64,000 nucleotides of DNA from a virus (IMGVR_UViG_3300023371_000005); one strand, 5' to 3'; shown: positions 6,011 to 63,554, counted from the stretch's first letter. A program made the numbers and translations. The notes: generated by a model not told the origin, from the letters alone.

Positions 6011-7999
6011 TTACACGATTCCAAATGTCTCAATGAAGTCGGTTTCTGACAAGATCGCAACCCCCAAAGACTTCGCAGCTTGATTCTTTGAAGAGGTCGA
6101 GTTCACATCATTATTGATAAGATAATTAGTATTCTTGCTAACAGAACCTGTTACCTTACCACCAAGAGCCTCAATTTTAGCTTTCAAAGCATCCCGATTC
6201 TTGAAATGAGTGAGCTTTCCAGTAATTACAAAGGTTTTTCCTGTTAAATCAACAGCACCTTCCGCAGTCTCCTCAACCTTTGCTTCTGGAGAATTAAATT
6301 GAATAAAATGGTCAGCAATATATTTTGCTTCGGAGTAATCAAAATCGATTAGATTACGATGCATCTCGCCTCCAAAACCGGAAAGCTGATAGAATGGATA
6401 CTTACTATCCACAGCCACTACAAAATCTTCCCAAGTCTTGAAATGCTTGACCAATTCCTTAGAAGCCGTTGAACCAATCAACGGAATACCAAGAGCCGCA
6501 ATGAACTGATGAAGTTCACAGTGAGAACCAGTACTAATGGCATTAAATACCTTCTCGACGGATTTGACACCAAATCCAGGTTTTTTAATCCATTCTTCTT
6601 TATGAGTAGCCAAATCAAAAATGTCGGAGCATTTACTTACCCAACCCCAATCAATCAATTTCTCTAGAGTGGCTTTAGAAATACCCTTCATATCAAGGCC
6701 CTTCTTACCACAGAAATGATCTAATCGGTTAATCAACTTACCAGGACATCCGGAATCAATACAAATCAACACAACGGAATCATTCACGCCCCAATGCTGA
6801 GTCATTCCGCCGCAAACAGGACACTCATGAGGAATAAGAATCTTATTCTCTTCATATAAGCCTTCCTTACTAGCAGAAGCAATCTGCGGAATAATCATAT
6901 TAGCCTTGAATACTTCAATCTCTTGATACTTATGCGGACCAAGAGGGGCAAAAATTCCTGCCATAACACTGATATTGTGTAAACTTGCTCTTTCTACGGT
7001 AGAACCATCAATATCGACTGGTTCAAAGATTGCGACGGGAGTCAAAACGCCTGTTCTACCCATCGTCCATTCGATATCCAAAAGCCTGGTAGTGTAGGTA
7101 TCATCATAGAACTTAAATGCCAACGCATTTTTGAAGTGATGTGTCGTTTCGCCAAGAGAACGTCCGTATGCACAGTCCGCAAATTTGAATACTACGCCAT
7201 CAATGGGATAAGAATGAATTTTTGCAGTATTTCTAATCGCATCAATTACGTGTTCAATGTTCACTTGATTAACTGCTTGACCTGTTAGTGGAACAAATGG
7301 GACAATTGTAAATCCAAAAGGACGAAGTAATTCAAGCTTTTGGTCTAACCGATATTCCACTCCATCTTCAAAGTAGATGGAAGAAATAACATCCCATACC
7401 ACAAATGTGAGCCTGCGGGCCGCACATTCCTTGGCATCTAATAGACGAATACTACCTGCAGCGAAATTTCTTGGGTTCCGATACTGATTACTGAACTCTT
7501 GGAAATCATCATATGTGCAAATAATTTCACCATCAATTACCAGTTCATCAGTATATGGGATTTTACGCGGAATAGAAGAAAGAACTCTTGCGTTATGTAA
7601 AATATCTTCACCAACTAATCCGTTGCCCCGAGTCTCCGCAGCAACTAATTCTCCATTACGGTAAGTAAGAGAACAAGTAAGACCATCCATCTTACACATT
7701 GCCAGGAATAATTTATTTCCGACAAAATCTAATACTTCCTTTGAAGATTTAGTTTTTTCTAAGGATAACATCTTATGATTATGTTCTGCTTTTGATAAAG
7801 CATTTACTACTTCATAAGTAATAACTTGAGTAGGAGAATTAGGAAGGACTAATCCAGTTTCTTCTTCTAATTGTTTCAACTCAAAATATTTATTATCCCA
7901 TTCTTCGTCTGTAATTATTGGATTTCCTTCATCATATTTTTTAGTAGCATCATTTAAGATAGCTACTAAATAATGAATTTTATCATAGATACTATCCAT
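6011..7999 (-). CDS. ligA: NAD-dependent DNA ligase
   Basis: Adenylation motif KMDGL (KxDG), Zn-finger CPVCGG, HhH region and C-terminal BRCT-like segment; 662 aa. Confidence 0.9.
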   Translation of the reverse strand: MDSIYDKIHYLVAILNDATKKYDEGNPIITDEEWDNKYFELKQLEEETGLVLPNSPTQVITYEVVNALSKAEHNHKMLSLEKTKSSKEVLDFVGNKLFLAMCKMDGLTCSLTYRNGELVAAETRGNGLVGEDILHNARVLSSIPRKIPYTDELVIDGEIICTYDDFQEFSNQYRNPRNFAAGSIRLLDAKECAARRLTFVVWDVISSIYFEDGVEYRLDQKLELLRPFGFTIVPFVPLTGQAVNQVNIEHVIDAIRNTAKIHSYPIDGVVFKFADCAYGRSLGETTHHFKNALAFKFYDDTYTTRLLDIEWTMGRTGVLTPVAIFEPVDIDGSTVERASLHNISVMAGIFAPLGPHKYQEIEVFKANMIIPQIASASKEGLYEENKILIPHECPVCGGMTQHWGVNDSVVLICIDSGCPGKLINRLDHFCGKKGLDMKGISKATLEKLIDWGWVSKCSDIFDLATHKEEWIKKPGFGVKSVEKVFNAISTGSHCELHQFIAALGIPLIGSTASKELVKHFKTWEDFVVAVDSKYPFYQLSGFGGEMHRNLIDFDYSEAKYIADHFIQFNSPEAKVEETAEGAVDLTGKTFVITGKLTHFKNRDALKAKIEALGGKVTGSVSKNTNYLINNDVNSTSSKNQAAKSLGVAILSETDFIETFGIV

Positions 8000-8024
8000 T
8001 ATTATTCTCCTTAATTACAAATAT

Positions 8025-8053
8025 ATTATATAAAAAATTTTTTCTTTTGTCAA
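8025..8053 (-). promoter_or_regulatory. promoter TTGACA-17-TATAAT (minus) for ligA
   Basis: Motif. Confidence 0.6.
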
Positions 8054-8059
8054 GTAAGT

Positions 8060-8431
8060 TTAGCCTATAAGCGTGGGTTCAAAATGCTCATAATCATGAT
8101 GTGGAATGGCTAAAATTTCACCAATTTTCAAAAAATTGAGTCTTGGTACAATATGCAATCCATCCATTTGCAATTCACTTGGAGCAACAATACTATTCAT
8201 TTTTACTCCTTTACTTTGACAGAGTAAATCAAAAGTATCTTCACTCATATAATAATCATAATTATGTGCATATTCATAATGGCGATTTAGAAAACCTTTT
8301 AGACTTTCTAAATTTACCACCTGAGATTGAACTCTGTCTTCATGATAAGAACTTACAAGCGCATCTTTATCATCTAGCTCGTCCCAACCAATAGAGTTGG
8401 GACGGCTATAATATTCACTCAAAATCATCAT
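8060..8431 (-). CDS. hypothetical protein
   Basis: ORF overlapping the gyrA stop by 4 nt. Confidence 0.35.
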   Translation of the reverse strand: MMILSEYYSRPNSIGWDELDDKDALVSSYHEDRVQSQVVNLESLKGFLNRHYEYAHNYDYYMSEDTFDLLCQSKGVKMNSIVAPSELQMDGLHIVPRLNFLKIGEILAIPHHDYEHFEPTLIG

Positions 8432-10803
8432 ACTTTACTTACAGAAAGAACCTTATTTCCTTTGATTACTTGATTACCGATTGAAGGACGGCCCAAAGTG
8501 GGAATTTCAGATGCTTCAATACAAATACTGCTCTTATCACCCAAAATCAAGATACTATCCCCATCCTCAATTAAGGTTGCCGCACTTACCATTCCAGTAG
8601 AATCAGTAGGCTTGTAGCACATTAGACCCTTACCTCCACGCTTCTGGATTGGTAATTCAGACAGGTCAAACTTCTTAGCCAGACCATTCTGAACAAAAAT
8701 TGCTAACTTATCAGTCTTATTGCGGATTGGAACTGCGCTGACTACCTTATCTTCGGCGCCCAAGGTAATACCCTTTACACCAGAAGTGGTTCTAGAAGTA
8801 GCTCCAATTTCCTTAGAATCAAAATGGATACCATAACCCTTTTCAGTTACGATAATCAAAGGTTCATCCTTGATTAGAGAAACAGCAGCCAGCTCATCGC
8901 CCTCTTTGATAGTGATTGCGGCAATGCCAGTCTTCTTCTTGGTCTTGACATATTCATCTAAAGCGGTCTTTTTGACCAAACCATTCTTGGTCACGAACAG
9001 GACATATTGAGCATCAGTATCACGATAGATAGAATACATCACCGCAGGCTGTTCATCCATCTCCATATTGATTAGAGATTTGATAGAAGTGCCCTTACTT
9101 ACATTAGTTCCTACTGGAACATCATTTACAAGTAGACGATACATCTTACCCTTGTTACTGAAAATCATCAGAGAATCAATAGTATTGGTGCGGATAACAG
9201 CATGAGTAATGTCATCTTGAGTCTTTACACCTTTACCATTTCTCTTCTGGGTGCGGAAACTGGTTGCGGGGATGCGCTTGACAAGACCACCTTCGGTCAT
9301 AATAACAACGCACTTTTCAGGTTCAACGAACTCAATTTCCTTTTCTTCCTTAGTGGAAGCGACCTGGGTTATAGTACTTCTACGAGCATCACCATAAAGC
9401 TTTTTAAGTTCGGTGAATTCTTCCACAAGTGATGGAGTTGGATTCTTAAGAATATTCTCCAATCGCTGGGACTCAAGAATTTTTTCATTTCTCTCAGTTT
9501 CAATTTCAACCTTCTCCAATTTAGCCAACTTAGAAAGCTTCATATCTAAGATTGCCTTTGCCTGGGCTTCAGAGAAGTTATACTGGCTCATAAGCGCAGT
9601 TTTAGCAGCGGCCGCACTTTCAGACTTTTTGATAAGTGCGATAATATTATCAATATTTTCTAGTGCCTTTAACAGACCCTCTAAAATATGGATTCGTGCG
9701 GCAATCTTATCTAATTCAAACTTTGTTTTTCTTAGTAGAACATCCTTTTGGTGATCAATATAAATCTCCAAAAGTTGCTTGATATTCAATAGTTGAGGCT
9801 TTTTATCCACAAGGGCAACTTGATTGAAACTGTAAGTATCTTCCAATCGTGTGAGCTTGAATAATTTTGCGATAATCGGTTCAGTAGAAACTCCTTTAGC
9901 AACTTCAATAACAAAGCGCACACCATCTTTATTGGATTCATCTCGAATTGCGGTAATACCTTCTAACTTACCTTCTTCGCAGAGCTTATCAATCTCTTTT
10001 ACAAGGTCTTCTTTAGAAACTTTGTAGGGAATGGAAGTAAAAACGATACTATCACTTTTCTTATCAGATTCAACAACATATTCGCCCCGAATCCTTGCTC
10101 TGCCCTTACCCATTAGGTAAGCTGCGGGCAGTTCGTCCTTATTGATAATTGTTCCGCCGGTGGGAAAGTCAGGTCCAGAAATGTAATTCAAAATTTCCTT
10201 GATATCACATTCAGGGTTCTGCGCGACATGGATAGCCGCATCCATAACTTCATTCATATTGTGAGGGGCGAAACTACAAGCCATCGCAACAGCAATGCCA
10301 GAAGTACCATTAACAATCAAGTTAGGAACTCGACCGGGTAGATAAATAGGCTCTTGCTCTTCATCAGTATAAGCGTTCTGCCAATCTACTGTATCTTTCT
10401 TGATGTCTGCTAACATTTCTTCGCCAGCCTTAGATAGCTTACACTCAGTATAACGATAAGCAGCGGGTTCATCACCATCTCTACTACCATTATTGCCATG
10501 GAATTGAATCAGCGGATATCGCATATTCCAAGGCTGACTCAACCAGACCAGCGCACCATAAATAGAACTGTCACCATGAGGATGGAAACGGCCCATGGTG
10601 TCACCGACGGGCTGGGCGCACTTTACAAATTTCTTATTATTCATATAGCCTTTGTCGAACATATCCCAAAGGATACGACGAGCAACAGGCTTCAAACCAT
10701 CTTCTGCGGAAGGGATGGCTCTGTCTGTGATGACACTCAAACTGTAATCAAGGAAACTTTGTTCAACTTCCCTGATGATCGGTGTCTGAATTATGTCTCC
10801 CAT
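8428..10803 (-). CDS. gyrA: DNA gyrase subunit A
   Basis: HPHGD quinolone-resistance region motif, catalytic Tyr region, C-terminal beta-pinwheel with GyrA-box-like QKRGGKG. Confidence 0.9.
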   Translation of the reverse strand: MGDIIQTPIIREVEQSFLDYSLSVITDRAIPSAEDGLKPVARRILWDMFDKGYMNNKKFVKCAQPVGDTMGRFHPHGDSSIYGALVWLSQPWNMRYPLIQFHGNNGSRDGDEPAAYRYTECKLSKAGEEMLADIKKDTVDWQNAYTDEEQEPIYLPGRVPNLIVNGTSGIAVAMACSFAPHNMNEVMDAAIHVAQNPECDIKEILNYISGPDFPTGGTIINKDELPAAYLMGKGRARIRGEYVVESDKKSDSIVFTSIPYKVSKEDLVKEIDKLCEEGKLEGITAIRDESNKDGVRFVIEVAKGVSTEPIIAKLFKLTRLEDTYSFNQVALVDKKPQLLNIKQLLEIYIDHQKDVLLRKTKFELDKIAARIHILEGLLKALENIDNIIALIKKSESAAAAKTALMSQYNFSEAQAKAILDMKLSKLAKLEKVEIETERNEKILESQRLENILKNPTPSLVEEFTELKKLYGDARRSTITQVASTKEEKEIEFVEPEKCVVIMTEGGLVKRIPATSFRTQKRNGKGVKTQDDITHAVIRTNTIDSLMIFSNKGKMYRLLVNDVPVGTNVSKGTSIKSLINMEMDEQPAVMYSIYRDTDAQYVLFVTKNGLVKKTALDEYVKTKKKTGIAAITIKEGDELAAVSLIKDEPLIIVTEKGYGIHFDSKEIGATSRTTSGVKGITLGAEDKVVSAVPIRNKTDKLAIFVQNGLAKKFDLSELPIQKRGGKGLMCYKPTDSTGMVSAATLIEDGDSILILGDKSSICIEASEIPTLGRPSIGNQVIKGNKVLSVSKV

Positions 10804-11045
10804 AAGGAACCTCCTTTACATCTACAAATTGATCGAAAAACTCATTCATCGTTTGAGGTAAAGTTCGATCTATAACATCTTCAATTATTTTAAGTAATGT
10901 CTCAGTTGGGTAACGCGCATCAAGCCAAGGTTTTTCTGTGGAAATGGCAGGAATTGGCATATATTTTCTTTCCAAATCTATTGACCAATCTTGACTTTTA
11001 GGCTTGACAAGTGTGCGTCTTTCTTTCCAATCAACTATATGTGGC
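10763..11045 (-). CDS. hypothetical protein (start approximate)
   Basis: ORF overlapping the gyrA start. Confidence 0.3.
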
Positions 11046-11507
11046 ATATGCTTCTTCCTCACTAATATATCCAGTAGCCAATTGGTCGGCTAGTTCATTC
11101 CACTCATGTCCATTATGACCTTTAATTTTTCTCAAATCAATGCGGTAACCTTCTTTGTACCAGTCATAATATGCTTGAATCAAATCCAGATTTTCTGGTT
11201 TTTGCTTATCACTTTTAATCCAGCCTCGTCTTGCCCAGTTGAACATCCACTCATTGAATGTATTCACGCAATATGCAGAGTCGCTATATACGATCGGTGG
11301 CTGGCCCCAATCATCGCACTTCTCTCCGTAATTGAGCATTACATATAAAATTGCTTTTAGTTCTTCTCGATTATTTGTGGTATCATTGGATCTCTTGGCT
11401 CGAACAAATTGAACAGAACCATTATCATCGACACCAACGATACCATAACCACCTTTTGCATTGGCCTTACCATTGCCAATACAGGAACCATCAGTGTAAA
11501 AAGTCAT
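11031..11507 (-). CDS. rnhA: ribonuclease HI
   Basis: FYTDGS ... HxGHEWNELAD matches the RNase H catalytic motifs. Confidence 0.85.
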   Translation of the reverse strand: MTFYTDGSCIGNGKANAKGGYGIVGVDDNGSVQFVRAKRSNDTTNNREELKAILYVMLNYGEKCDDWGQPPIVYSDSAYCVNTFNEWMFNWARRGWIKSDKQKPENLDLIQAYYDWYKEGYRIDLRKIKGHNGHEWNELADQLATGYISEEEAYATYS

Positions 11508-11961
11508 TTGGATGTCCTTTCAAAATATCGTCAATTATTTTATCAATATCTACTTCTTCAGCAATATCAACAATGGAACTAACTTCTTTAGTTCCTTTTA
11601 GAACAGTCATTCCCTTCAACACTTGCTCATTACAAAGCATTACAGTATTATTAGGAAATGCTTCTTGTAATTCTTTTAGAATGTTTTGGCAATCACTCAA
11701 TTTCATATTCGCAGAAATATGACATAACAGCACATCACCAGGGTCAAGAGATACTTTTTGAATTTTATATCCCTCCCAAGTTCCAGTTATTCCATCCTGC
11801 TTCACAGAAGCAGGCGGAATATAATTTGGATTTACTGCTGTTGTAGAGCGATTATTCAAATAACTATAAGGAGTGCCGGTACTATACGCGTTAGTTAAGC
11901 CAGCATAAATTTCTCTTTCTTTTTGGTATCCATTATACATCGATATTCGCCCTTTCTGCAT
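11491..11961 (-). CDS. hypothetical protein
   Basis: ORF. Confidence 0.35.
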   Translation of the reverse strand: MQKGRISMYNGYQKEREIYAGLTNAYSTGTPYSYLNNRSTTAVNPNYIPPASVKQDGITGTWEGYKIQKVSLDPGDVLLCHISANMKLSDCQNILKELQEAFPNNTVMLCNEQVLKGMTVLKGTKEVSSIVDIAEEVDIDKIIDDILKGHPNDFLH

Positions 11962-13828
11962 TGTCCTCGATAAATTTCTTACGAGGAGTGACTGATTCGC
12001 CCATCAAGCTCATGAAGACATTAGCAACGGAGGCCGCATCTTCCATAGTAATCTGCTTCAAGGTACGAGTGTTTGGATTCATAACAGTTTCTGCCATTTC
12101 TTCGGGGTCCATTTCGCCCAGACCTTTCATACGACCAAGTTCAAATTTCTTTGTATTAGTCTTACGGAAGGCTTCAAGAGCTGGGTCATCTTTCAGATAC
12201 TGAATCTTAGTTCCCATAGTAACCTTATAAAGTGGAGGAACTGCCGCATAAATATAACCCTTATCCAAAAGATCAGGACAGAACTTCCAAATGAAAGTTA
12301 AGAACAAAACACGAATGTGAGAACCGTCAACATCAGCATCAGCAGTAATGATAAACTTACCATATCTCAACTTAGATTCGTCAACAATGATTTTACCATC
12401 CTTGACCTCTAAGCCAAAAGCGTCAACCATACCGTTAATTTCCTTATTTTGAAGCGCTTTATGTAAATCGCATTTCAAAACATTTAAAGGTTTACCTCTT
12501 AGCTGGAATACTGCCTGAGTGCCACGATCTCGCGCTTCTTTAGTAGAACCCGCTGCGGACTTACCCTCAACGATAAATACTTCACACTTTGCACGATCCT
12601 TAGAACTGGCATCTGCCAGAACGTCAGGCATCACAACTCTGCGCTTGGCGTCAACCTTACGGACGGTTTCCTTGGCCTTCTTTGCCTTTTCGCGGGCCGC
12701 ACGTGCCAAGAGTGCTTTATCAACTATTGCTTTTGCATCTTTTGGATTTGCGTCCAGCCAAATTTTAATTTCCTTAGAAACTAAGCGTTGGACTGCGGTT
12801 CTTGCTTCACTACTGGAAAGAACATCCTTAGTCTGACCAGAGAAAACGGGGTCAGGCATGATGAAAGACAAGACCAGAACTAAACCTTCTTTCAATTCTT
12901 CGCCAGTGATATTAGCATCTTTTTCCTTCAATAGCTTATTTTCACGAGCATAATCATTGACAGTAGAAGTTAGTGCAGTTCTGAAACCTGTTAAGTGAGT
13001 TCCTGCGCTATTGGGAATGGAGTTAGTATATAATTTATATACATCGGTGTAAGTATCATTATATTGCATGGCAATTTTTACACCGATTCTATCTTCCATA
13101 CTTTCAGTATAAAATACGGAAGTAAGTTTAGTTCTTTCTCTATTGAGATCATCAATGTAATCTCTAATGCCATTTTTGGAGGTAATATATTCAGTTTCAT
13201 TACCCTCAAAATTCAAAACAAAATTCATACCAGGAGAGAGATATGCTAACTCCTGGATTTGCTTCTTTAAAGCAGTATAATCAAGATGAATACCCTCCTT
13301 GAAAATGGTTTCATCAGGAAGGAAAGTTACTGTAGTGCCAGTTTTTACTCCACGGGCAGTATTTTCATTATAACTTATCAATTCACCTTTCTTAAATTTA
13401 GCAATAGCCAATTTTCCTTCTCTCAAAGAACGAACTTCAAAAGTTTCAGAAAGGGCATTAGTTGCCTTAGCACCAACACCATTCATACCGCCAGAAGTAT
13501 TATAACCAGTTTTACCTTCACTATCGAATTTTGCACCAGTATGAAGTTTAGTATAAACATTTACAAGAACTTCACTACCATCTTCTGCTTTACCAAAGGG
13601 GACGCCACGACCATTATCTTCAATCTCAATGGTGCCATCTTTGCTTACGGTAATAGCACATTCAGTACAATATCCGTTTAAATATTCATCAACAGCATTA
13701 GAAATGATTTCGAGTGTAATATGTCTAACACCTGCAGGACCGACTGAGCCTACATACATACCTGGACGCAGGCGAATCGCTTCGATACCTTCAAGCGTTT
13801 TTATGTCTTTTACGCCATAATCTAACAT
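11933..13828 (-). CDS. gyrB: DNA gyrase subunit B
   Basis: GHKL ATPase motifs (GLHHLV-like, NGRGVP), Toprim EGKSA ... DADVDGSHI. Confidence 0.9.
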   Translation of the reverse strand: MLDYGVKDIKTLEGIEAIRLRPGMYVGSVGPAGVRHITLEIISNAVDEYLNGYCTECAITVSKDGTIEIEDNGRGVPFGKAEDGSEVLVNVYTKLHTGAKFDSEGKTGYNTSGGMNGVGAKATNALSETFEVRSLREGKLAIAKFKKGELISYNENTARGVKTGTTVTFLPDETIFKEGIHLDYTALKKQIQELAYLSPGMNFVLNFEGNETEYITSKNGIRDYIDDLNRERTKLTSVFYTESMEDRIGVKIAMQYNDTYTDVYKLYTNSIPNSAGTHLTGFRTALTSTVNDYARENKLLKEKDANITGEELKEGLVLVLSFIMPDPVFSGQTKDVLSSSEARTAVQRLVSKEIKIWLDANPKDAKAIVDKALLARAAREKAKKAKETVRKVDAKRRVVMPDVLADASSKDRAKCEVFIVEGKSAAGSTKEARDRGTQAVFQLRGKPLNVLKCDLHKALQNKEINGMVDAFGLEVKDGKIIVDESKLRYGKFIITADADVDGSHIRVLFLTFIWKFCPDLLDKGYIYAAVPPLYKVTMGTKIQYLKDDPALEAFRKTNTKKFELGRMKGLGEMDPEEMAETVMNPNTRTLKQITMEDAASVANVFMSLMGESVTPRKKFIEDNAERANIDV

Positions 13829-13873
13829 ATCGTTCTCCTTTCAAATTTCCTTAGATTTTTTTCTTATGTGTAT

Positions 13874-13902
13874 ATTATACCATTATTTTTTTGAAAAATC
13901 AA
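13874..13902 (-). promoter_or_regulatory. promoter TTGATT-17-TATAAT (minus) for the gyrB-gyrA operon
   Basis: Motif. Confidence 0.6.
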
Positions 13903-14169
13903 GTATTTTGTTAGCAAGGATTTGATAGGTCAAAAAATAATATTATAATGATAATAAATTTGATTTACAATGAAAGAAGATAAGGGAGGGGATTATATTG
14001 TCTTTATTAGAGAAAATATAGCTTATAGTAGGATGTTATTATTTATCAGACTTACGTTTTCAACCTTATAATTTAATTGCAAAATGGATTTTCAGGATTG
14101 TAAGTCTTGAAAATTACACGCAAAAAGAAATTGATGATGCATATAATTATATTTTTGAGTAAAAAAAAA

Positions 14170-14207
14170 TAAAGCCGAGTAGATAAAATATCTACTCGGC
14201 TTTATTG
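14170..14207 (-). terminator. terminator after the lysis cassette
   Basis: Hairpin agccgagtagat-aaaat-atctactcggct flanked by A/T runs. Confidence 0.6.
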
Positions 14208-14211
14208 TCAT

Positions 14212-14541
14212 TTAACCGCAGGCATCGTCTACGAATTCTTCTTCTGGGACAGGTGGGGCATTATCCTGAGTTAGTAATTGTTGCATTACGCTTTCATATT
14301 TTATGCCACCCTTAGTATTTTCTTTTTCGGCTTTTTTATAATATGCTTGTTGACTGATAGCATATGCGCCCCAAGGACAAGCTGCCATAGCAGTGACCCA
14401 AGGTAATTCACCGAAATATTGATTTATGATACAAACGAAGGCTAAAATAATGAAAGCAATAGTAACTAACCAAATAAGCGCTGATTCTTGAACCAGTAGC
14501 TTTTTGGAAAATTCCATTTTTTCTTTCTTCTTATCAGCCAT
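14212..14541 (-). CDS. holin-like membrane protein
   Basis: 109 aa with two hydrophobic helices; lies immediately downstream of the endolysin with overlapping ATGA. Confidence 0.5.
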   Translation of the reverse strand: MADKKKEKMEFSKKLLVQESALIWLVTIAFIILAFVCIINQYFGELPWVTAMAACPWGAYAISQQAYYKKAEKENTKGGIKYESVMQQLLTQDNAPPVPEEEFVDDACG

Positions 14542-16211
14542 TACTTTTTAGCTTCAATCTTCTTGGTGAAATCTAGGCAAATCCAGCCAGAACCATTTTT
14601 CATCTTGCCCCAGCCATCTTTTTCATCAATGATGGTGTATAACTGGTTCTGCTTTACTTGAGTATTAACTTTGTAATTAGTACCTGCGCCCGCACGTACA
14701 TTTACTACATCACCGGTAATCATTATGACGTAAGCTTCAAAACCAGGAGCAGTAGCTAATTCAGAATCATATTCTTTCAAATACTTCTTATCAACAATAC
14801 CGCTAATAGGACCGGTCTTTACAGTAGAAATAGTGATATTATCTCCATTGATCTTACGAACAAATAATTTTTTACCAAACATCCAAGAGGCTACAGATTT
14901 ACCATTGGTAAATACAGCATCATTAGTTAGCATGACTTCCATGCCAGGCTCTAATTTTAATTCCTCTTCTGGAACAATAATAGTATTTTCACTCATTTTA
15001 TTTACAGCCTCCTTAATAGCTTTTTTAGTTAAAGGTCCGACGATACCATCATCGTCTAGGTTATTCTTTCTTTGGAAGTCAATAACTGCGGCATATGTCT
15101 TAGAACCAAAATCTCCATCTGGTCCTTTAGAACCAACATTATAACCCAATTTAACTAACCATTCTTGTAACTCTCTTACGTCTTCACCAGTATCACCAAT
15201 GCTTAAAACATCATTGTTAATAGATGGAGTTGGAGTTGGTGTAGGAGTTACAGAGCTTCCACCGCCAAAAGTAGTACGAGGAGCTTCATTCTGTCCATAC
15301 CAGAAAGATTTCTTATCTCTAGTATCGACGTGAGTAAAATGTCCATCAGCACTGGTTTCATATAAACCAATACCTTTAATTCCAATACTTTCAGCATATT
15401 TTGCTACTTCTCTTGGAGCAACTCCCTAAACAACAATATCAGCAGCATCACCTTTAGAGTGACGAGAGCCAGTAGCGCCACCAATACGCTTATTGTGAAC
15501 TGGACATCTGTATCCACTAGTTACAGTGATAGATTTACCAAAATGGTCTCTAATTTTTTGAACATATTCAACTAATTTAGGGTTGATAATGGTCTCAGAG
15601 CAGCAGCCAGAACCATGACAATCGAACTCTAAAGAGTTGAAGTTTTCAGATAACTTAGTCTTTTGACCCTTTTTATAAGTATTAGTAGCCATAGTAGTAT
15701 TTTCAACTCCTTTTACATATTTATCATAATACACTTGGCCCATTGCGGCACGCTTGGATTTTTGAGCGGCTGCATTAGCAGGTCTTTCAAAATTCATAAG
15801 AACTACATCGGATGCTTGCTGAACTGTAGTAGCATTTACTAAAATATTATAAACTGAATTCTTATAAGAGGTTTTCAATTCCTTTATTAAAAATTCTAAC
15901 TACATTTCCAAATCTCCAATGGATTTCTTCTTGGACTTTGCATAGTTTAATAGATTTTCCTTACGAGACCAATAAGTCCATTGAGCCAAGCCATATCCTG
16001 CAGAGTCACGCACAAAGTTGGTATATGTTCCATTATCAACTTTTGCGGTATACTCGGCATCGCTTAGTCCCAAAGAACGACTATATGTATCTTGTAAGTT
16101 ATTGGGGCGAAGGGCAGATTCGGCGTCTAAATTTCCCATCAGACCGGCTACACCGAAATCGCTAAAGCCTTCTTTCTTTAGAAAATCCCAAATGATTTTA
16201 CTATTAGACAT
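14541..16211 (-). CDS. multi-domain endolysin: N-terminal lysozyme-like domain, peptidase M15, PG_binding_1, SH3-like C-terminus; two in-frame TAGs (15900-15902, 15426-15428)
   Basis: Track ORFs 15900..16211, 15426..15878 and 14541..15149 share one frame and are separated only by TAG. The M15 motifs SGYRCPVHN...HSKGDAADI and FTHVDTRD lie on opposite sides of the second TAG. The PG-binding motif (DGDFGSKTYAAVIDFQRKNNLDDDG) and an SH3-like tail follow. Confidence 0.8.
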
Positions 16212-56675: not shown

Positions 56676-56704
56676 AGGGTAGAACCTAAATAAGACTCTA
56701 CCCT
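56676..56704. other. stable hairpin flanking the DGR TR2 module
   Basis: Stem agggtaga-acctaaataagact-ctaccct; a corresponding hairpin sits at 59715..59749 in the TR1 module. Confidence 0.5.
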
Positions 56705-56716
56705 TATTTTTATTTT

Positions 56717-56865
56717 TGATTACGAGAGCGTTCATTATAAAATAAATTACTAACACCCAATCATCGGAAGAATTTTGCCAAGAGGCAAGGTTTATATACT
56801 TGATAAAATACTGCAAATATATAAAACTCTCAAAGAGAGTTATAAATAAAGTCAATAACAAAACA
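56717..56865 (-). ncRNA. conserved about 150-nt element immediately 3' (minus-strand sense) of TR2; paralog of 59757..59900; candidate DGR spacer/priming RNA
   Basis: About 85 percent identical to the TR1-flanking element, including the hairpin aactctcaaagagagtt. Confidence 0.5.
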
Positions 56866-56867
56866 GT

Positions 56868-56994
56868 GGCCACCGATATTCGCATTCGCATTCGACGTGG
56901 AATTGTTCAAATTCAGATAGAAAGGACCAGTATTCAGCCTGTTATTCCAATTACTACTGAAGTTCGTGACGTGAGACGAATTGCAATTCGTATC
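56868..56994 (-). repeat. DGR template repeat TR2 (cognate of VR2)
   Basis: 127-nt near-copy of 57079..57204; differences fall at positions where this copy has A on the coding (minus) strand; lies outside any real gene. Confidence 0.8.
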
Positions 56995-57061
56995 GTGGAA
57001 TAAATATTTTATCGTATAAGTAACCCATATATTCAAAGAATTTTACTATTCTTTAAATTTT

Positions 57062-58255
57062 TTATAATTTTTGGATGCGGCCACCGACATTCGCACTCGC
57101 ACTCGACGCGGAATCGTTCAAACGCAGAAAGAAAGGACCAGAAGCCAGCCCGTTAGCCCAATAACCACCGAAGCGCGCGACGCGAGACGAATTGCAACCC
57201 GCATAATCAGAGAAGTAAGTTGTACCACTACCTCCTTTAGCCGTTATAACAAATCCGCCTTCACTAGTACCTAAACAATTGGTATAATATCCATAAGTAT
57301 TACTAGTGAGTCCAGAAGCATTGGTAAATTCATAATTAGTGCCAGAATCATCAAAAGCTCCAGTAGTAGTTAAATAATTTCTAGAAGCATCAGTAACAAT
57401 GCCATCACACCATTTAGAAATATTACCCCAAAAATTTTCAATTCCCGCAAATTTCATACCTTCAGTATCCGTTCCACCATAATCCAATCCTTGATTATTC
57501 ATTGTTCCAGTAATAATAGGAGCAGAATTAGAACTATTAGTATAACCATATCCGAGAGCAGTTTGTCCATTCAAAGATTTATATTTTATAACATACATGG
57601 CCTATAAATAAACTAATTGATAGTAAGCAAACTACTCATAACCATCGCCATTTAGTTGGGCTGCCGCACGAAACTCACTAATAGTTTTAGAAGCCGTAGG
57701 GGTTTTATTACTTAAACTACGTAATTTACCATCACTATCAATATAGCCATCATAAGCACCAGTATAAAATGTATCTAAATCTTTATTATGCGTATGTGCG
57801 TAATAAGTAAAATCTGTATTAGCAATATCATTTGTAAAACTAACAGTAACTTTATTATCGTCGCTTTTAGTAATTCTTAATCCTCTTCTTGGAAAAGCAA
57901 TCATTACATCTCCTGCACTTCCACTTTCAATATCTACTGGATTACCATTAATATCTTCAGCGTAATTATTAGGATTTAATTTTACAACTTCTACTCCATC
58001 TTTCATAAGAACGGGATAATGTCCGAAAAATTCATCCCAAGCAGAAGATTTTGCTTCCATGGTAAATGCGTCATCCTCATAAGAACAACAAGTGTCAGGA
58101 TTAGAATCATTTAAATCAATAATAACAGTCATTACTTTTACCGGCTCTTCATCTAGTTTTGTTCCAATTTCAATTAACGCATCTTCAATATGCTCCACAT
58201 GAGAAGCACACCACTTATCAACAAAATCATGTAAATTCATTCTTTCATAAGGCAT
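57062..58255 (-). CDS. DGR target protein 2 (FGE-sulfatase/C-type-lectin-fold, variable C-terminus), 398 codons with two in-frame TAGs (57632-57634, 57602-57604)
   Basis: Track ORFs 57632..58255 and 57062..57598 share one frame; the segment GDGYE-TAG-FAYYQLVYL-TAG-AMYVIKYK aligns to GDTYE-Q-FAWFQLIYL-Q-AMFIMKYK of paralog 60070..61296 (CAA at both positions); GN(I)W and RFGG(Y)W motifs. Confidence 0.8.
57079..57204 (-). repeat. DGR variable repeat VR2 at the 3' end of target 2
   Basis: See TR2. Confidence 0.8.
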
Positions 58256-58383
58256 AAATTCACATCCTATTCTTACTTATTTAATATTTTATCAATTTCC
58301 TCTTGTAAATTTGGAAATCTCAAAATTACTGCATCATAATCTAATTTTCCTTCTTTAATTCTCATAGCTAAGTATTCAGCCAT
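58256..58383 (-). CDS. small ORF (about 36 aa) between RT region and target 2
   Basis: ATG overlaps the upstream stop; weak. Confidence 0.2.
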
Positions 58384-58387
58384 AAAA

Positions 58388-58618
58388 TTACACCCCCATA
58401 ATAATAGCATCTAAAGCATTTTTCATAATCTCATTTTCATCAGACATTTTCTTTAGATACTCGTCTTTGCTATATTGAATCTCTTCATATTCATAATAAA
58501 CATGACCTTTTTCATCAACTTTTTCGATAATATTATTATGAATATAAACAGTAGTTTTTCCAATCACTAAAGGTTTTGCCTGCTCGGCACTACCTCGCAC
58601 GATACCCATATTTTTCAT
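58388..58618 (-). CDS. hypothetical protein (76 aa) overlapping the RT 3' end
   Basis: Good SD AGGAGA before the ATG; not Avd-like (acidic). Confidence 0.4.
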   Translation of the reverse strand: MKNMGIVRGSAEQAKPLVIGKTTVYIHNNIIEKVDEKGHVYYEYEEIQYSKDEYLKKMSDENEIMKNALDAIIMGV

Positions 58619-59681
58619 ATCTTTGTATCTCCTTTCCTTGAATAACGCATTTTTTATATATCTCCATAGAACGATAAAATGTTCTAAAATATTTATTAAT
58701 AAAATTAGACATTGTTGTCTAATCTATTATCCCTTTATAAGAGAAAAAAGCACAAAATTCGTGATAAGTTGGTAAAAATATTTCATCTCGATAATAAGAA
58801 TTATATAACATTTTTATTATAAATTTTCTCACCTTTTTATAAGTTCGTTTACGCAAAATAATTCTATTATGAAAATGTCTATATCCTACAAAATCTATTC
58901 CCCTAATATCTACAGGAAAAATCTAATAATTATCTTTTATTTCTAATTTTAATTCTTCTTGAAGATATTTTTTTATTTGATAAAAATATTTCCATAACTA
59001 TTTTTTATTATTTCCTAAAATTACTATATCATCCATATAACGAATAATATATTTAATTTTCAATTCTTCTTTACACCAATGATCAAAAAATGATAAATAA
59101 TAATTTGATAAATATTGTGATAGATAAGAACCAATAGGTAAACCATTATTACAACTTTCAATAATTTTATCTAAAAGCAATAAAGTCTATTTATCTTTAA
59201 TTTTTTTACGAATTAGTTTTTGTAAAATAGTTTGATTAATATTTGGATAAAATTTTTTTATATCAATTTTCAAGCAATACTAAGTATTTTTAACATCTTT
59301 TAGATATTTTTTAGTAAGATTAGTTGCTCGTGTAATTCCGGCATTTTTTATAGAAGCACAACTATGATAACAAAAATGTTTTACTAAAGTTGGTTCTAAC
59401 TATAACATAATGGCCCATTGAATAATTCTATCTGGATAATAAGGAAGTTTCATAATTTCTCGCTCTTTTCCACTATCCTAAATTATTGAATGCTTATAGA
59501 GTGAAACCTAATATTCATTATTTAATAATATTTGTTGAATCTATTTTAGATTATTATCTAAATCTTTTTCAACTTTTTTTACTGAACGATAATGAGATTT
59601 ATCCTATTTAGCCATTTTGTGTGCTAACCGCAAATTATCCATATTACATATTTTATCAAAAATATTATTTAGACGTTTCAT
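58536..59681 (-). CDS. DGR reverse transcriptase, 381 aa, with 11 in-frame TAG codons
   Basis: RT motifs across one open frame: DRIIQWA (motif 2), IDIKKFYPNI (3), DGR-specific GLPIGSYLSQYLSNYYL with SQ rather than QG (4), YIRYMDDIVIL (5), IFPVDIRGIDFVGYRH (7); only TAG interrupts it, no TAA or TGA until 58536; very AT-rich. Confidence 0.8.
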
Positions 59682-59714
59682 ATTAATTCCTTCTATAATT
59701 ATTGTTATTTTTAT

Positions 59715-59749
59715 AAGGTTTTAGTAAAAAATATTTTTACTAAAACCTT
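59715..59749. other. perfect 16-bp hairpin between TR1 module and RT start
   Basis: aaggttttagtaaaaa-tat-tttttactaaaacctt. Confidence 0.55.
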
Positions 59750-59756
59750 ATTTTAT

Positions 59757-59900
59757 TTTGACTGAGAGAACGTTCATTATAATAAAATAATTACTAATAC
59801 CCATTATCAGAAGAATTTTACCAAGAGGTAAGGTTTATGTATTTAGAAAAATATTATATATAAAACTCTCAAAGAGAGTTATAAATAAAATAACAAAAGA
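59757..59900 (-). ncRNA. conserved about 150-nt element 3' of TR1 (paralog of 56717..56865)
   Basis: See 56717..56865. Confidence 0.5.
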
Positions 59901-59906
59901 GTGCGT

Positions 59907-60036
59907 GCCGATATTCGAATCCGTATTGTCGGGTGTTTCATTCACATTGAAGATGAAAGGTCCAGTATTCAGACTATTATTCCAATAACCGCTGAAATTC
60001 GCTACGTTACTGGGATTGACATTCGAATTATCGGAA
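59907..60036 (-). repeat. DGR template repeat TR1 (cognate of VR1)
   Basis: 130-nt alignment to 60091..60220 with about 31 mismatches, all at positions where TR1 has A on the coding strand. Confidence 0.85.
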
Positions 60037-60069
60037 GTATATTTTTCCATACAATTAACCTATATTATT

Positions 60070-61296
60070 TTATAGTTTTTGGACGCGCGCGCCGATATTC
60101 GAAGCCGCATCGTCGGGCGTACCATCCACACCGAAGAGGAAAGGCCCAGCAACCAGACCATCATCCCAACAACCGCCGAAACGCGCCACGCGACCGGGAT
60201 AGACATCCGAAGCATCGGAAAAATAAGTTGTCTCGCTACCAGCACCGATCATTTTCTTTAACGCAAAACCGCCTTCAGAAGTGGCACAAGGATAAATTAA
60301 ATAATCCTCTAAATAACCATTTTCGGCAACTTGTTCTGTATCAACTTCCGCAGTAATTTCGTATCCTTCACCATAGTCGTTGAAATTATTAGTTGTAATT
60401 TTATAATTGCAATTATCATCAGAGACAATGCCATCAACCCAATTCCAAATATTACCCCAGAAATTTTCAATACCAGCAAATTTCATACCTTGAGTCATAT
60501 CTGTGTTATCTCCGTCATAGGGAATACCCCAGTCCAAACTGCAAGTATTCATAATGCCAGAAGCTATTGCTTCCTCTCCATTTACATTACCACATCCAAG
60601 AGAAGATTGGCCATTAATTGATTTATACTTCATAATAAACATAGCTTGTAAATAAATTAATTGAAACCAAGCAAATTGTTCATAAGTATCTCCATTGTTG
60701 TGTGCGGCCGCACGTGCTTCACCGATTGTTATATTACAAGCAGGAGTTTTACCACTCAAACTACGTAATTTATTATTTTCATCAATATACCCATTATAAG
60801 CACCGATATAAAATGTATCTAATGAATTATTATTAAAAGTATGAGCGTAATATTCAAAATTATCAGGATCTTCAATATTGGTAAAACTAATTCTTATTTT
60901 CATATCAATCTCATTTCCTGTAATTCTTAATCCTCTTCTTGGAAAAGCAATCATTACATCTCCTGCACTTCCACTTTCAATATCTACTGGATTACCATTA
61001 ATATCTTCAGCGTAATTATTAGGATTTAATTTTACAACTTCTACTCCATCTTTCATAAGAACGGGATAATGTCCGAAAAATTCATCCCAAGCACTTGCGC
61101 CCGCAGACATTTCGCTAGCATCATCCTCATAAGAGCAACAAGTTAATGGATCTGAATTAGATAAATCAATAACAACAGTCATAGTCTTACCAAATGCTTT
61201 ATTATATAATCTTACTAATTCATCTTCAATATGTTCTACATGAGAAGCACACCACTTATCTACTCCATCTTGAAGATTCATTCGTTCATAACTCAT
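60070..61296 (-). CDS. DGR target protein 1 (FGE-sulfatase/C-type-lectin-fold), 408 aa, no internal TAG
   Basis: FWGNIWNWVDG and RVARFGGCW motifs; VR at codons about 360-405; GC-rich IMH-like gacgcgcgcgcc at the 3' end. Confidence 0.8.
   Translation of the reverse strand: MSYERMNLQDGVDKWCASHVEHIEDELVRLYNKAFGKTMTVVIDLSNSDPLTCCSYEDDASEMSAGASAWDEFFGHYPVLMKDGVEVVKLNPNNYAEDINGNPVDIESGSAGDVMIAFPRRGLRITGNEIDMKIRISFTNIEDPDNFEYYAHTFNNNSLDTFYIGAYNGYIDENNKLRSLSGKTPACNITIGEARAAAHNNGDTYEQFAWFQLIYLQAMFIMKYKSINGQSSLGCGNVNGEEAIASGIMNTCSLDWGIPYDGDNTDMTQGMKFAGIENFWGNIWNWVDGIVSDDNCNYKITTNNFNDYGEGYEITAEVDTEQVAENGYLEDYLIYPCATSEGGFALKKMIGAGSETTYFSDASDVYPGRVARFGGCWDDGLVAGPFLFGVDGTPDDAASNIGARVQKL
60091..60220 (-). 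repeat. DGR variable repeat VR1
   Basis: See TR1. Confidence 0.85.
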
Positions 61297-61302
61297 TTAT
61301 TT

Positions 61303-61731
61303 TCACTCTCCTAAAATAAAATCACCAAGTAAACCTTCTCCAAGTAAAGAAGTTCCTCCAGTCAAAGCAACTGTAATTATCTAGCCATTTTGAATTGAAA
61401 GAGAATAAGGCTAATTTGTTATTGAATCAATAATAATTAATGACTTTGCGGAACGAGTAGTTACCATTCCATTTTCATCAATAATAACATATTCATTGGG
61501 ATTACCAATAATTTGATTCTATTTTTGATTCCAAGAATCTCTTTCTCCAACTTGTAAATGCACTTCCTAATTATTAATATGATTATTTACATATTCAATA
61601 TCAGCTTTAGTGTCATCAATAGCATTGATAATATTTACTAAGGTATCATTATTCGGATAGTCCTACATATTAATTTTAGACCATAAATAAATAAGACCAT
61701 CAAAGTCTAAAAATGATTTTGTTTTAGACAT
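61303..61731 (-). CDS. hypothetical structural-module protein, 142 aa, five in-frame TAGs
   Basis: SD AAGGAGGAAG before ATG 61731; frame open to TGA 61303 apart from 5 TAG. Confidence 0.5.
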
Positions 61732-61832: not shown

Positions 61833-63062
61833 TTAAGCGTTAGCAATAGCAGCTTCAATTTCAGCAGTAGTTAAAGCAATTACTCTAGTATTAATTTCAT
61901 TATCAGTATATGCCTTAGCATCAATTAATGCTTGTGCGGCAGCACCGTATGCATCATAAGTATTGGCGGGAATAGTATCCTGCTTCTTTGCTAATTCCTC
62001 ATCAACATAAGTCTTATCGGCCTTTTTAGCAATTTCAGTAGCATTAGCGCTAACAGCATTCTGACGAGCAGTAACTTCAGCCTCTAAATCAGCCTGAGAA
62101 GCCTTTGAAGCGATAGCGTTAGACAATTCAGTCTTATCAGCAGTCTTTAGATAATCGCCTTCAACAACAGCCAAACGACTATCAACGCCATTAATAGCAT
62201 CAGACAATTCAGTCTTATCAGCAGCTTTTAGATAGTCATCTTCAACAGCCTTAACACGACTAGCCAAAGCAGTTAAATCAGCAGCCTTAGCATAATCACC
62301 AATAGACAAAGCAGTAATAGCGTCAGCAACATAAGCGCTAACAGTCTTATCACCAGTATCAACCTTACTCTGCAAAGCTGCAATAGCTTCATTCATTGCA
62401 GAAGCATCATCTGGATGATCCTGAATCCAAGCAGCGATTTCAGCTAGAGTATCTAGAGACTCCTTAGCGTCCTCTGTGATTAACTGCTTAGCCAATTCTT
62501 CGTTAGCAATGGCACGAACAGACTTACCAGCGTCATCGCCCTCTAGAGTAGCAACACGACCAACTAAAGCAGTGTCATCATAAGTAGCAGCAGCCTGAGC
62601 GTCAGCGATCATCTGTACAACAGTCTTACCATCAGCAACTTCACCGACCAAAGATTCTAGTGCGTCAACTTCACCCTGTGCAGTGACAGCCTTGTCATCA
62701 GCAGCCTTTGCGGCAGCAGCATTAGCTTCTTCTGCAGCCTTAGCACGAAGAATTTCAGTATCTAAAGCAGCTTTAACAGAAGCAGCAGACTCAGAAGAAC
62801 CACCATTAGCAGCATTTAGAGTTTCTTCTGCTTTCTTGTTAATATAAGCAACAATAGACTGTTGATCAGTATAACCTTCTGGAATTTCACCAACATAAGA
62901 ACGAAGATCTTCAATTTCTAATCCACGAGCAGTAGCCTCGCTTGCAATAGCTTCCGCAATTGCCTCATCTCGAGCAGTAGCTTCAGCAGCAATTTTTTCA
63001 GCGATCTTGGACCATAAAGTACTTACGCCCTATTGGTCTAAAAATTTCTTTAAATCAGCCAT
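61833..63062 (-). CDS. Ala/Glu/Lys-rich coiled-coil structural protein (possible fiber or decoration protein), 409 aa, one in-frame TAG at 63030-63032
   Basis: SD AAAGGAGAT before ATG 63062; same frame as track ORF 61833..62651; repeats (GD)YLK(A/T)ADKTELS. Confidence 0.55.
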
Positions 63063-63092: not shown

Positions 63093-63554
63093 TTATTCGC
63101 AAATCTCAAGAATTTCTGTATGAGTTAAAGGAACTAATTTATTGAATAATTCTTGAGCATATGCCTTTGTAGCGTATTCTTCCAAAGCAATTTCTGGAAT
63201 CTCAATTTTATTTAGAGCTTCTTGTAATTGTTCTTGAGTAACTAAGTCACTATCTACAAGCACTTCATACTCATATAGCTCTTCATTCCATTGATATAAC
63301 TTTTTCTCTTGGAATGCTTTATAGATGACATTTACATCACCAATTGCAGGAAAATTATAATGAGTATTAGCATTAATAACTAATACTTTATCTTCTCCAA
63401 GATACTTTAAATCCAACCATTCATTGACACCGTCTCCAATTTTTAATTTACCAGTATCAATTTCAAATCCAGGCTCACCAGGGGCTAAAACAGGATTTAA
63501 AGTGATCCAACTTGAAGCTTTACCTCTTTTTAATTGAATTGTATATGTAGCCAT
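63093..63554 (-). CDS. putative tail/structural protein
   Basis: N-terminus TYTIQLKRGKASSWITLNPVLAPGEPGFEIDTGKLKIGDGVNEW resembles a conserved phage tail-fiber N-terminal domain; SD GAGGAGG. Confidence 0.4.
   Translation of the reverse strand: MATYTIQLKRGKASSWITLNPVLAPGEPGFEIDTGKLKIGDGVNEWLDLKYLGEDKVLVINANTHYNFPAIGDVNVIYKAFQEKKLYQWNEELYEYEVLVDSDLVTQEQLQEALNKIEIPEIALEEYATKAYAQELFNKLVPLTHTEILEICE

Follow-up and report, generated by a model that had tools for sequence, protein, structure and literature searches.

The prototype among diversity-generating retroelements (DGRs), that of Bordetella phage BPP-1, is laid out as mtd-avd-TR-brt, and its spacer, between the template repeat (TR) and the reverse transcriptase (RT) gene brt, is needed in cis and provides the priming adenosine for cDNA synthesis (bioRxiv 10.1101/2023.10.23.563531). 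This spacer is the RNA motif RT-10; motifs RT-1 to RT-19 were described only by their proximity to RT genes, RT-17 with a suggested part in retrons or DGRs, and those other than RT-10 were speculated to serve other DGRs (Weinberg et al. 2017, PMC5737381). More than one TR is carried by 20% of 271 DGRs with multiple variable repeats (VRs) (PMC6642488). Among the zeta crAss-like phages, amber codons occur in seven DGR RT genes, and in phages Lera and ct1yV3 there are three TR-VR pairs, of which two seem to have decayed; in Lera the differences are restricted to adenines for TR1-VR1 alone, the other pairs having 3 and 10 non-A changes that were taken as decay (PMC12386605). Here we describe a DGR in a 64,000-nt stretch of phage DNA (IMGVR_UViG_3300023371_000005; this whole stretch is called the window below, and positions are counted from its first letter). 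The element very probably is an active phage DGR with one RT gene and two self-contained target-template modules, and it is an unusually clean, demonstrably active case of a known kind, the multi-TR DGR with a TAG-containing RT gene.

Like BPP-1, the locus shows adenine-specific transfer from TR to VR, an RT with the motifs I/LGxxxSQ and YMDD, and GC-rich VR 3' ends. It differs from BPP-1 in its lack of a detected Avd, in having two targets that each come with a TR and spacer of their own, in the 10 internal TAG codons of its RT gene, and in the class of its spacers, RT-17-like here and RT-10 in BPP-1 (PMC5737381). With the zeta crAss-like phages it shares TAG in the RT gene and tail-fibre targets with a C-type-lectin fold, predicted in our case for one target; Lera has Avd (PMC12386605) whereas none was found at our locus, both of our TR/VR pairs are clean and active, and the window phage is unrelated, at ~206 kb.

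Every gene between 51 and 64 kb of the window is on the minus strand, as are the DGR features. Read 5' to 3', the order is a gene termed o142, target gene T1 with VR1, TR1, spacer 1, RT, the genes o76 and o36, target gene T2 with VR2, TR2, spacer 2, a 61-aa open reading frame (ORF), and a U32-like gene. T1 (60070-61296; 408 aa, no in-frame TAG) is tail-fibre-like, and its paralog T2 (57062-58255; 397 aa when TAG is read as Gln) matches phrog_5302, 'tail protein' (E = 1e-54). VR1 (60085-60220) supplies the last 45 codons of T1 preceding a terminal VQKL-stop, and VR2 (57077-57204) the last 42 codons of T2 preceding IQKL-stop. The non-coding repeats TR1 (59901-60036) and TR2 (56866-56993) follow 48 and 83 nt downstream of their VRs, gaps too short for any gene; gene callers place a spurious 71-aa ORF over TR1 (59835-60050).

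The adenine specificity of both pairs is complete. The 136-nt alignment of TR1 and VR1 is free of gaps, and all 31 mismatches fall at TR adenines (31 of 43 adenines; Fisher p = 4e-21); in the 128-nt alignment of TR2 and VR2 the same is true of all 25 mismatches (25 of 38 adenines; Fisher p = 2e-17). Outside both cores non-adenine mismatches start immediately. Nearly all TR adenines occupy the first or second codon position of the VR frame, chiefly in AAT or AAC codons. The two templates are only 68% identical over 168 aligned nt, and each is ~60% identical to the non-cognate VR. At the 3' ends of the VRs are GC-rich 14-mers (60081-60094 for VR1, 57073-57086 for VR2) that are candidates for an initiation of mutagenic homing (IMH) element; where the TR departs from the VR at this point, its A is matched by a G in every VR allele.

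For T1, structure prediction gave a model with the C-terminal formylglycine-generating enzyme (FGE)/C-type-lectin fold typical of DGR variable proteins. VR1 lies inside a protein-coding target, as expected of a DGR, where the fold should be of C-type-lectin or Ig-like type. We relied on prediction because a sequence search of the PDB with T1 returned noise only (T-cell receptor chains, E > 0.05). TaqVP of Thermus aquaticus (PDB 5vf4) differs in being bacterial rather than phage-borne and has no detectable sequence-level similarity.

A single RT gene is found in the 64-kb window, between the two modules (58593-59681); its 363 codons include 10 internal in-frame TAG. Translated with Q at each TAG, it gives hits to PF00078 (E = 2e-19) and to phrog_1423, 'reverse transcriptase' (E = 6e-101), and carries IGSYLSQ (59115-59135) and YMDD (59028-59039), in line with the DGR pattern of (I/L/V)GxxxSQ (motif 4) and YxDD (motif 5). 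Among solved structures the nearest is 8ub7_A (E = 2e-32), annotated as a 'Reverse transcriptase' of 328 aa, which we take to be the BPP-1 bRT; group II intron and retron RTs score at ~1e-11. All curated NCBIfam cut-offs for other classes were missed by far (TIGR04416, 112 of 300 bits; Retron St85, 56 of 235; Drt3a, 67 of 200), which supports assignment to the DGR type rather than to group II introns, retrons or Drt. A first-pass annotation of the window, made from the DNA alone, had already called a DGR-type RT from its SQ and YMDD motifs, two paralogous targets ending in an FGE/C-type-lectin fold, and ~31 mismatches all at TR1 adenines with the same pattern in TR2, placing each feature correctly to within a few bases; our searches bear out all of this, the fold being confirmed for T1 by structure prediction.

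Each TR is followed by a structured spacer, and the two spacers are copies of each other. Spacer 1 (59682-59900) runs from TR1 to the RT start codon and contains hairpin 1 (59864-59880), hairpin 2 (59818-59831), an RT-17-like element (~59748-59840) and a terminal hairpin (59715-59749). Spacer 2 (56676-56865), delimited by alignment with spacer 1, contains the same series (hairpin 1, 56825-56841; hairpin 2, 56775-56788; RT-17-like element, ~56704-56797; terminal hairpin, 56676-56704) and has no RT gene after it. The flanks of ~165-190 nt after each TR are ~80% identical between modules, and the similarity stops just short of the position where the RT gene begins in module 1. Hairpin 1 lies within a 34-nt stretch that is identical in the two spacers. 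The earlier description of two distinct TRs, each with its own conserved flank and hairpin, is upheld. The predicted folds contain the same three hairpins, and their stability exceeds that of all 200 shuffles in each case (z = -5.1 for spacer 1 and -4.1 for spacer 2). The two versions of hairpin 2, UUACC-UCUU-GGUAA (spacer 1) and UUGCC-UCUU-GGCAA (spacer 2), are related by a compensatory change from A-U to G-C.

The consensus of Rfam motif RT-17, ACCUUGCC-UCUU-GGCAAAA ... UAGUA ... GAA, is found 3' of both TRs. We built a covariance model, R1, from 13 copies, and it gave 39 matches in total. Exactly two of these are in the window, one per TR (59785-59840, E = 6e-6; 56741-56797, E = 4e-6). In the related loci (numbered with the prefix L), 34 of the 35 that were matched have a single copy just upstream of the RT, and L052 has two. 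In an alignment that was fitted to the model, all 108 cells of the 4-bp R1 helix are paired, with compensatory changes at three of the four pairs. The RT-17 gathering score is passed by ten copies in eight relatives (L081, L083, L087, L004, L085, L001, L109 and L116). Both TRs thus have beside them, in cis, the structured spacer RNA expected of a DGR, and this RNA may also serve in priming. Spacer 2 differs from RF03020 (RT-17) in that it adjoins no RT gene.

Two observations on the hairpins may be set beside this. The terminal hairpin between spacer 1 and the RT start is perfect over 18 bp and, read on the plus strand, resembles an intrinsic terminator with a T-run; its module 2 equivalent is a 12-bp hairpin of unrelated sequence. 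Hairpin 1 also resembles a terminator; a full stop there would part the TR from the RT-17-like element downstream, and we treat it provisionally as RNA structure. The exact 34-mer containing hairpin 1 has no match in IMG/VR, where the only copies of the phage are contigs that end in a repeat block of T1 (L091 and L093).

To place the layout among relatives, we ran a custom A-bias repeat scanner over 97 loci fetched via RT or target homologues. TR/VR pairs were found in 76 of them, usually in the order target-VR, TR, RT. (The scanner also returned a 53-nt pair, 51092-51144 and 2674-2726, with 8 mismatches, 7 of them at T, which we dismissed as chance.) One RT with several modules occurs in two lineages among the 76 loci. 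The first-pass annotation had called such an architecture uncommon, and rare it is; it is not new, given L109, L116 and published cases (PMC6642488, PMC12386605). L109, which is from the same ~98-kb contig as L052 (IMGVR_UViG_3300000286_000005), and L116, on a ~74-kb contig, each have two VR-TR-RT-17 modules and a single RT. In this family the RT is 46-48% identical to that of the window, and in L052/L109 it is likewise TAG-recoded, with 8 TAG codons. The L109/L116 family differs in that its RT comes after the second module whereas ours is between modules, in the ~5.6 kb with intervening genes that separate its modules, and in its target proteins, one of which is 1344 aa. Across this family an identical TR is present in thirteen IMG/VR contigs (L108-L120, ~58-101 kb), L109 and L116 being the two that span both modules. 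A different arrangement is seen in L087, in which positions 7146-14888 hold two complete tandem DGRs, each target-VR-TR-RT; their RTs are divergent, the second being 27% identical to the window RT, and their spacers score as RT-17 (51 bits) and RT-18 (73 bits). We had considered L087 as a one-RT, two-TR layout and rejected it on account of the second RT.

The phage itself is of jumbo size. Exact or near-exact T1 alleles (cluster members P0121 and P0131) are on contigs of 206,052 and 205,925 bp, and at ~206 kb for the genome the window is about one third. When the locus was compared by megablast with 50,697 phage records, nothing matched, and the best protein match of the window's topoisomerase in the phage collection is 40% identical.

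With 64 of ~206 kb examined, the locus might also be read as two DGRs, module 2 being served by a second RT elsewhere in the genome, much as a divergent second RT stands right behind the second TR of L087. We consider this unlikely. Spacer 2 closely copies spacer 1, down to the 34-nt identity and an RT-17-like element with compensatory change, whereas the second DGR of L087 pairs a different RT with a different RNA class, RT-18. No RT remnant is found behind TR2, the two further contigs that contain the whole locus (L121 and L122) show a single RT in 12-13 kb, and L109 and L116 also have the single-RT layout.

Read with the standard code, the RT region lacks any long ORF, the RT ending after 25 codons, and T2 is split in two. 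Together with the fact that no suppressor tRNA was found in the window, this might suggest a dead relic, an RT pseudogene full of stops with fossil TR/VR differences. The stops are, however, all of one kind: the RT frame has 10 internal TAG and no interrupting TAA or TGA, and L121 and L122, which are diverged strains, retain all 10. RT residue 253, a TAG, stands in an alignment column where all 51 homologues have Q. The two in-frame TAG codons of T2 (57602-57604 and 57632-57634, residues 208 and 218) align with CAA in T1, at Q207 (conserved at 90% or more) and Q217 (invariant) of a 48-sequence family alignment. Nor does TAG terminate genes. Of 53 long coding-strand ORFs, 36 end in TAA, 13 in TGA and 4 in TAG, and all four of the last are fragments of longer read-through ORFs, leaving none that truly ends in TAG. 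TAG thus occupies conserved Gln positions and is not used as a terminator, as in genetic code 15, and by these alignments it is a glutamine sense codon in this phage. Since VR alleles also differ between contigs that are identical elsewhere, which needs recent activity, we regard a dead relic as very improbable.

The usage of TAG is uneven. The 59 long ORFs contain 31 in-frame TAG codons, 22 of these beyond 47 kb, the structural end of the window, and none in the replication genes (topoisomerase II, NAD-dependent ligase, NAMPT and RNA ligase). Per 1000 codons, o142 has 35.2 and the RT 28.9, where the window averages 1.7; G+C is lowest in the same two genes (RT, 0.23; o142, 0.28), and half of the RT's Gln codons are TAG. 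An eleventh TAG of the RT (58590-58592) sits where most homologues already end, and may be a true stop or be read through to the TAA at 58536-58538. The first-pass annotation had named both targets and the RT. T1 has no in-frame TAG; the read-through needed by T2, with its 2 TAG, and by the RT, with its 10, was overlooked, as were the RT-17-like spacer after each TR and the precedents in IMG/VR and the literature for both layout and TAG.

Variation among natural copies of the phage shows that the RT system has been at work. We found the same phage in many other samples by exact look-up of the 76-aa o76 protein, and took additional alleles from members of the T1 and T2 clusters and from L121 and L122. 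Both templates are invariant: TR1 is 100% identical in all nine public contigs that contain it (L098, L101-L104, L106, L107, L121 and L122), and TR2 in all six (L098, L099, L100, L105, L121 and L122). Relative to the window, VR1 has 5-19 differences in contigs whose remaining sequence is 99.5-100% identical, and VR2 differs at 17-20 positions in L099, L100, L105, L121 and L122, all but one at a TR adenine; for VR1 and VR2 together all but two differences are at such positions. The clearest cases are L103 and L104, which have no differences in ~3 kb outside VR1 and 5 and 15 within it, and L121 and L122, which hold both cassettes on one contig and have 17-19 differences in VR1 and 17-18 in VR2, compared to 0.4-1% elsewhere. 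Of the encoded proteins, 15 among 16 alleles of T1 are distinct, and so are all 14 of T2. In T1, 21 of the 45 VR codons are hypervariable, in T2 17 of 42, and as many as nine residues occur at a single position; every one of the 38 variable codons corresponds to a TR codon that contains an A, and the 34 codons that lack adenine are constant throughout. An unchanging TR beside a hypervariable VR among natural copies is a hallmark of DGRs, and hypervariability at TR adenines is what the first-pass annotation had anticipated for mapped reads; we find it in public contigs for both VRs. Because the VRs vary among otherwise near-identical contigs, both cassettes have been active since these genomes diverged. 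As the RT needs TAG read-through and the VRs keep changing, this turnover also points indirectly to TAG-to-Gln recoding at work in vivo.

The same contigs bear on the integrity of the assembly. A 174-nt block is 100% identical between T1 (60920-61093) and T2 (57870-58043) in surroundings that are 74-82% identical, which looks like gene conversion between the paralogs, judging from the two gene sequences. Many public contigs of the phage break in this block, among them a 205,979-bp JGI contig and two IMG/VR contigs, and an assembler might have joined strain variants of a single cassette through it. A join inside both genes would yield a chimera rather than two whole genes flanking an RT, and outside the block T1 and T2 are just 74-82% identical. 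Independent assemblies from at least eight other samples, moreover, span T1/VR1-TR1-RT-T2 or the whole locus, the junctions of the tandem layout being crossed in L098, L101-L104, L106, L107, L121 and L122, and we see hardly any chance of an artefact. Ordinary positive selection or recombination, with repeats unrelated to reverse transcription, is as hard to credit: tail-fibre tips are commonly hypervariable, but here the polymorphic sites are confined to the adenines of a downstream non-coding repeat (29 of 30 in VR1, 27 of 27 in VR2) that is itself invariant and has a DGR-type RT and its RNA motif alongside.

We propose that the one RT serves both modules as follows. Each module consists of a tail-fibre-like target whose last 42-45 codons are the VR and would lie in a C-type-lectin/FGE fold, a cognate TR 48 or 83 nt downstream, and an RT-17-like spacer of ~190-220 nt. 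The RT would bind each TR-spacer RNA through the spacer, which, by analogy with BPP-1, would also prime cDNA synthesis, and would misincorporate opposite template adenines. The cDNA would then replace the VR to which it corresponds at non-adenine positions and in the GC-rich 3' end. Each template would home to its own VR, strictly cognate homing being expected because TR1 and TR2 are just 68% identical. Module 2 would have arisen by duplication of target, TR and spacer, placed downstream of the RT; as the spacer was copied along with the TR, a single RT would be able to serve both modules, acting in trans on module 2.

Several points weigh against this account. Its steps of cDNA synthesis, priming and homing are drawn by analogy with BPP-1, and the 64 kb seen of the ~206-kb genome leave room for a second RT elsewhere. 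The Rfam models place the spacers below their gathering scores: spacer 2 reaches 35.1 bits with RT-17 (E = 3e-4; 56704-56792; gathering score 40.4), and spacer 1 reaches 26.9 bits with RT-17 (59748-59835) and 33.3 bits with RT-18. By these scores the window spacers are RT-17-like divergent relatives and not members of RF03020 under the curated criterion. No tRNA gene, a CUA-anticodon suppressor included, was found in the 64-kb window or the flanking loci, a search that left ~140 kb of the genome outside it.

A further such point is the accessory protein. A DGR may have Avd or, in its place, an HRDC-type accessory gene; Avd is common in catalogued DGRs, though not universal. Of the 38 plausible small ORFs in the window, none had a PF05635 match at E <= 0.01, in agreement with the first-pass annotation, which had seen no Avd-like gene; Avd is required in BPP-1 and none was found here, so the mechanism may differ. 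We considered o76 (58388-58618; 76 aa, phrog_18126), which overlaps the 3' end of the RT and whose family follows the RT in ten relatives, as an Avd replacement, and rejected it since L090 has a target and then o76 without TR or RT. It has no Pfam or NCBIfam match, and probably belongs to the tail module, not to the DGR machinery.

Lastly, 5-7 TR codons per cassette have an adenine that is G in all VR alleles. Such invariant A-to-G sites are not expected from simple unbiased mutagenesis. Examples are CAC to CGC at the extreme 3' end, AGC to GGC (FSG to FGG, in the FGG motif) and ACN to GCN, and the same contrast of TR A with VR G is present in ten related DGRs (L081, L084, L085, L087, L088, L094, L001, L006, L008 and L013). 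These sites may reflect strong selection following random mutagenesis; context-dependent A-to-G copying by the RT, and not selection alone, could also produce them; and the 3'-terminal ones may mark an IMH/IMH*-type distinction of VR from TR.

The surroundings are those of a tail-fibre region. Just upstream of T1 is o142 (61303-61731), and between the RT and T2 is a small conserved protein, o36 (58273-58383). Domain and PHROG searches identified an Mtd_N-domain protein at 63093-63554 and coiled-coil fibre-like proteins nearby. A tail-fibre context is therefore a reasonable reading; the first-pass annotation had gone on from the location to receptor-binding variation, of which the tail-fibre-like neighbours (Mtd_N, phrog_5302) support the first part, and we infer from them that the diversified tips would bind receptors. 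One of the coiled-coil genes, Ala-rich (61833-63062), contains two tandem 81-nt repeats (62113-62274) that are 75% identical, with additional partial copies reaching ~62327. On the other side, adjoining the DGR, 51200-55381 encodes a 1393-aa Thr/Ser-rich protein of repeated modules with three in-frame TAG codons. It is missing in L122, and a Flg_new-repeat protein takes its position in L099 and L121; the cargo beside the DGR, as these contig sequences have it, differs from strain to strain. Another ORF, 48569-51070 (833 aa), has no PHROG match and is identical to a gene annotated with MVP_shoulder (PF11978) and Vault_3 in L121 and L122 (precomputed Pfam), that is, major-vault-protein-like domains in a phage.

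The locus offers a clean natural example of two templates, each with its own spacer copy, in use beside a single RT gene. Given two spacer-bearing templates and one RT, the spacer, rather than gene order or Avd, is the obvious candidate for what the RT recognizes. The locus also ties the orphan Rfam motif RT-17 to a defined place and role, the DGR spacer following the TR, and spacers 1 and 2, ~80% identical with compensatory changes, form a matched pair for studying the RNA requirements of an Avd-less DGR. An RT such as this one is missed by gene callers and DGR finders that use the standard code; and since it can be made only with TAG as glutamine, diversification depends on the phage's stop-codon reassignment. 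More tentatively, and with rather more doubt than confidence, we suggest that the RT-17-class spacer is a movable tag that by itself provides for recognition by the RT and for priming, and that the extreme TAG load of the RT is a translational gate. If the former is true, an Avd-less RT would serve any number of template modules in trans, and a phage would gain a new diversified target by duplicating target, TR and spacer. If the latter is true, the mutagenic RT would be produced only after a late-infection switch to decoding TAG as Gln.

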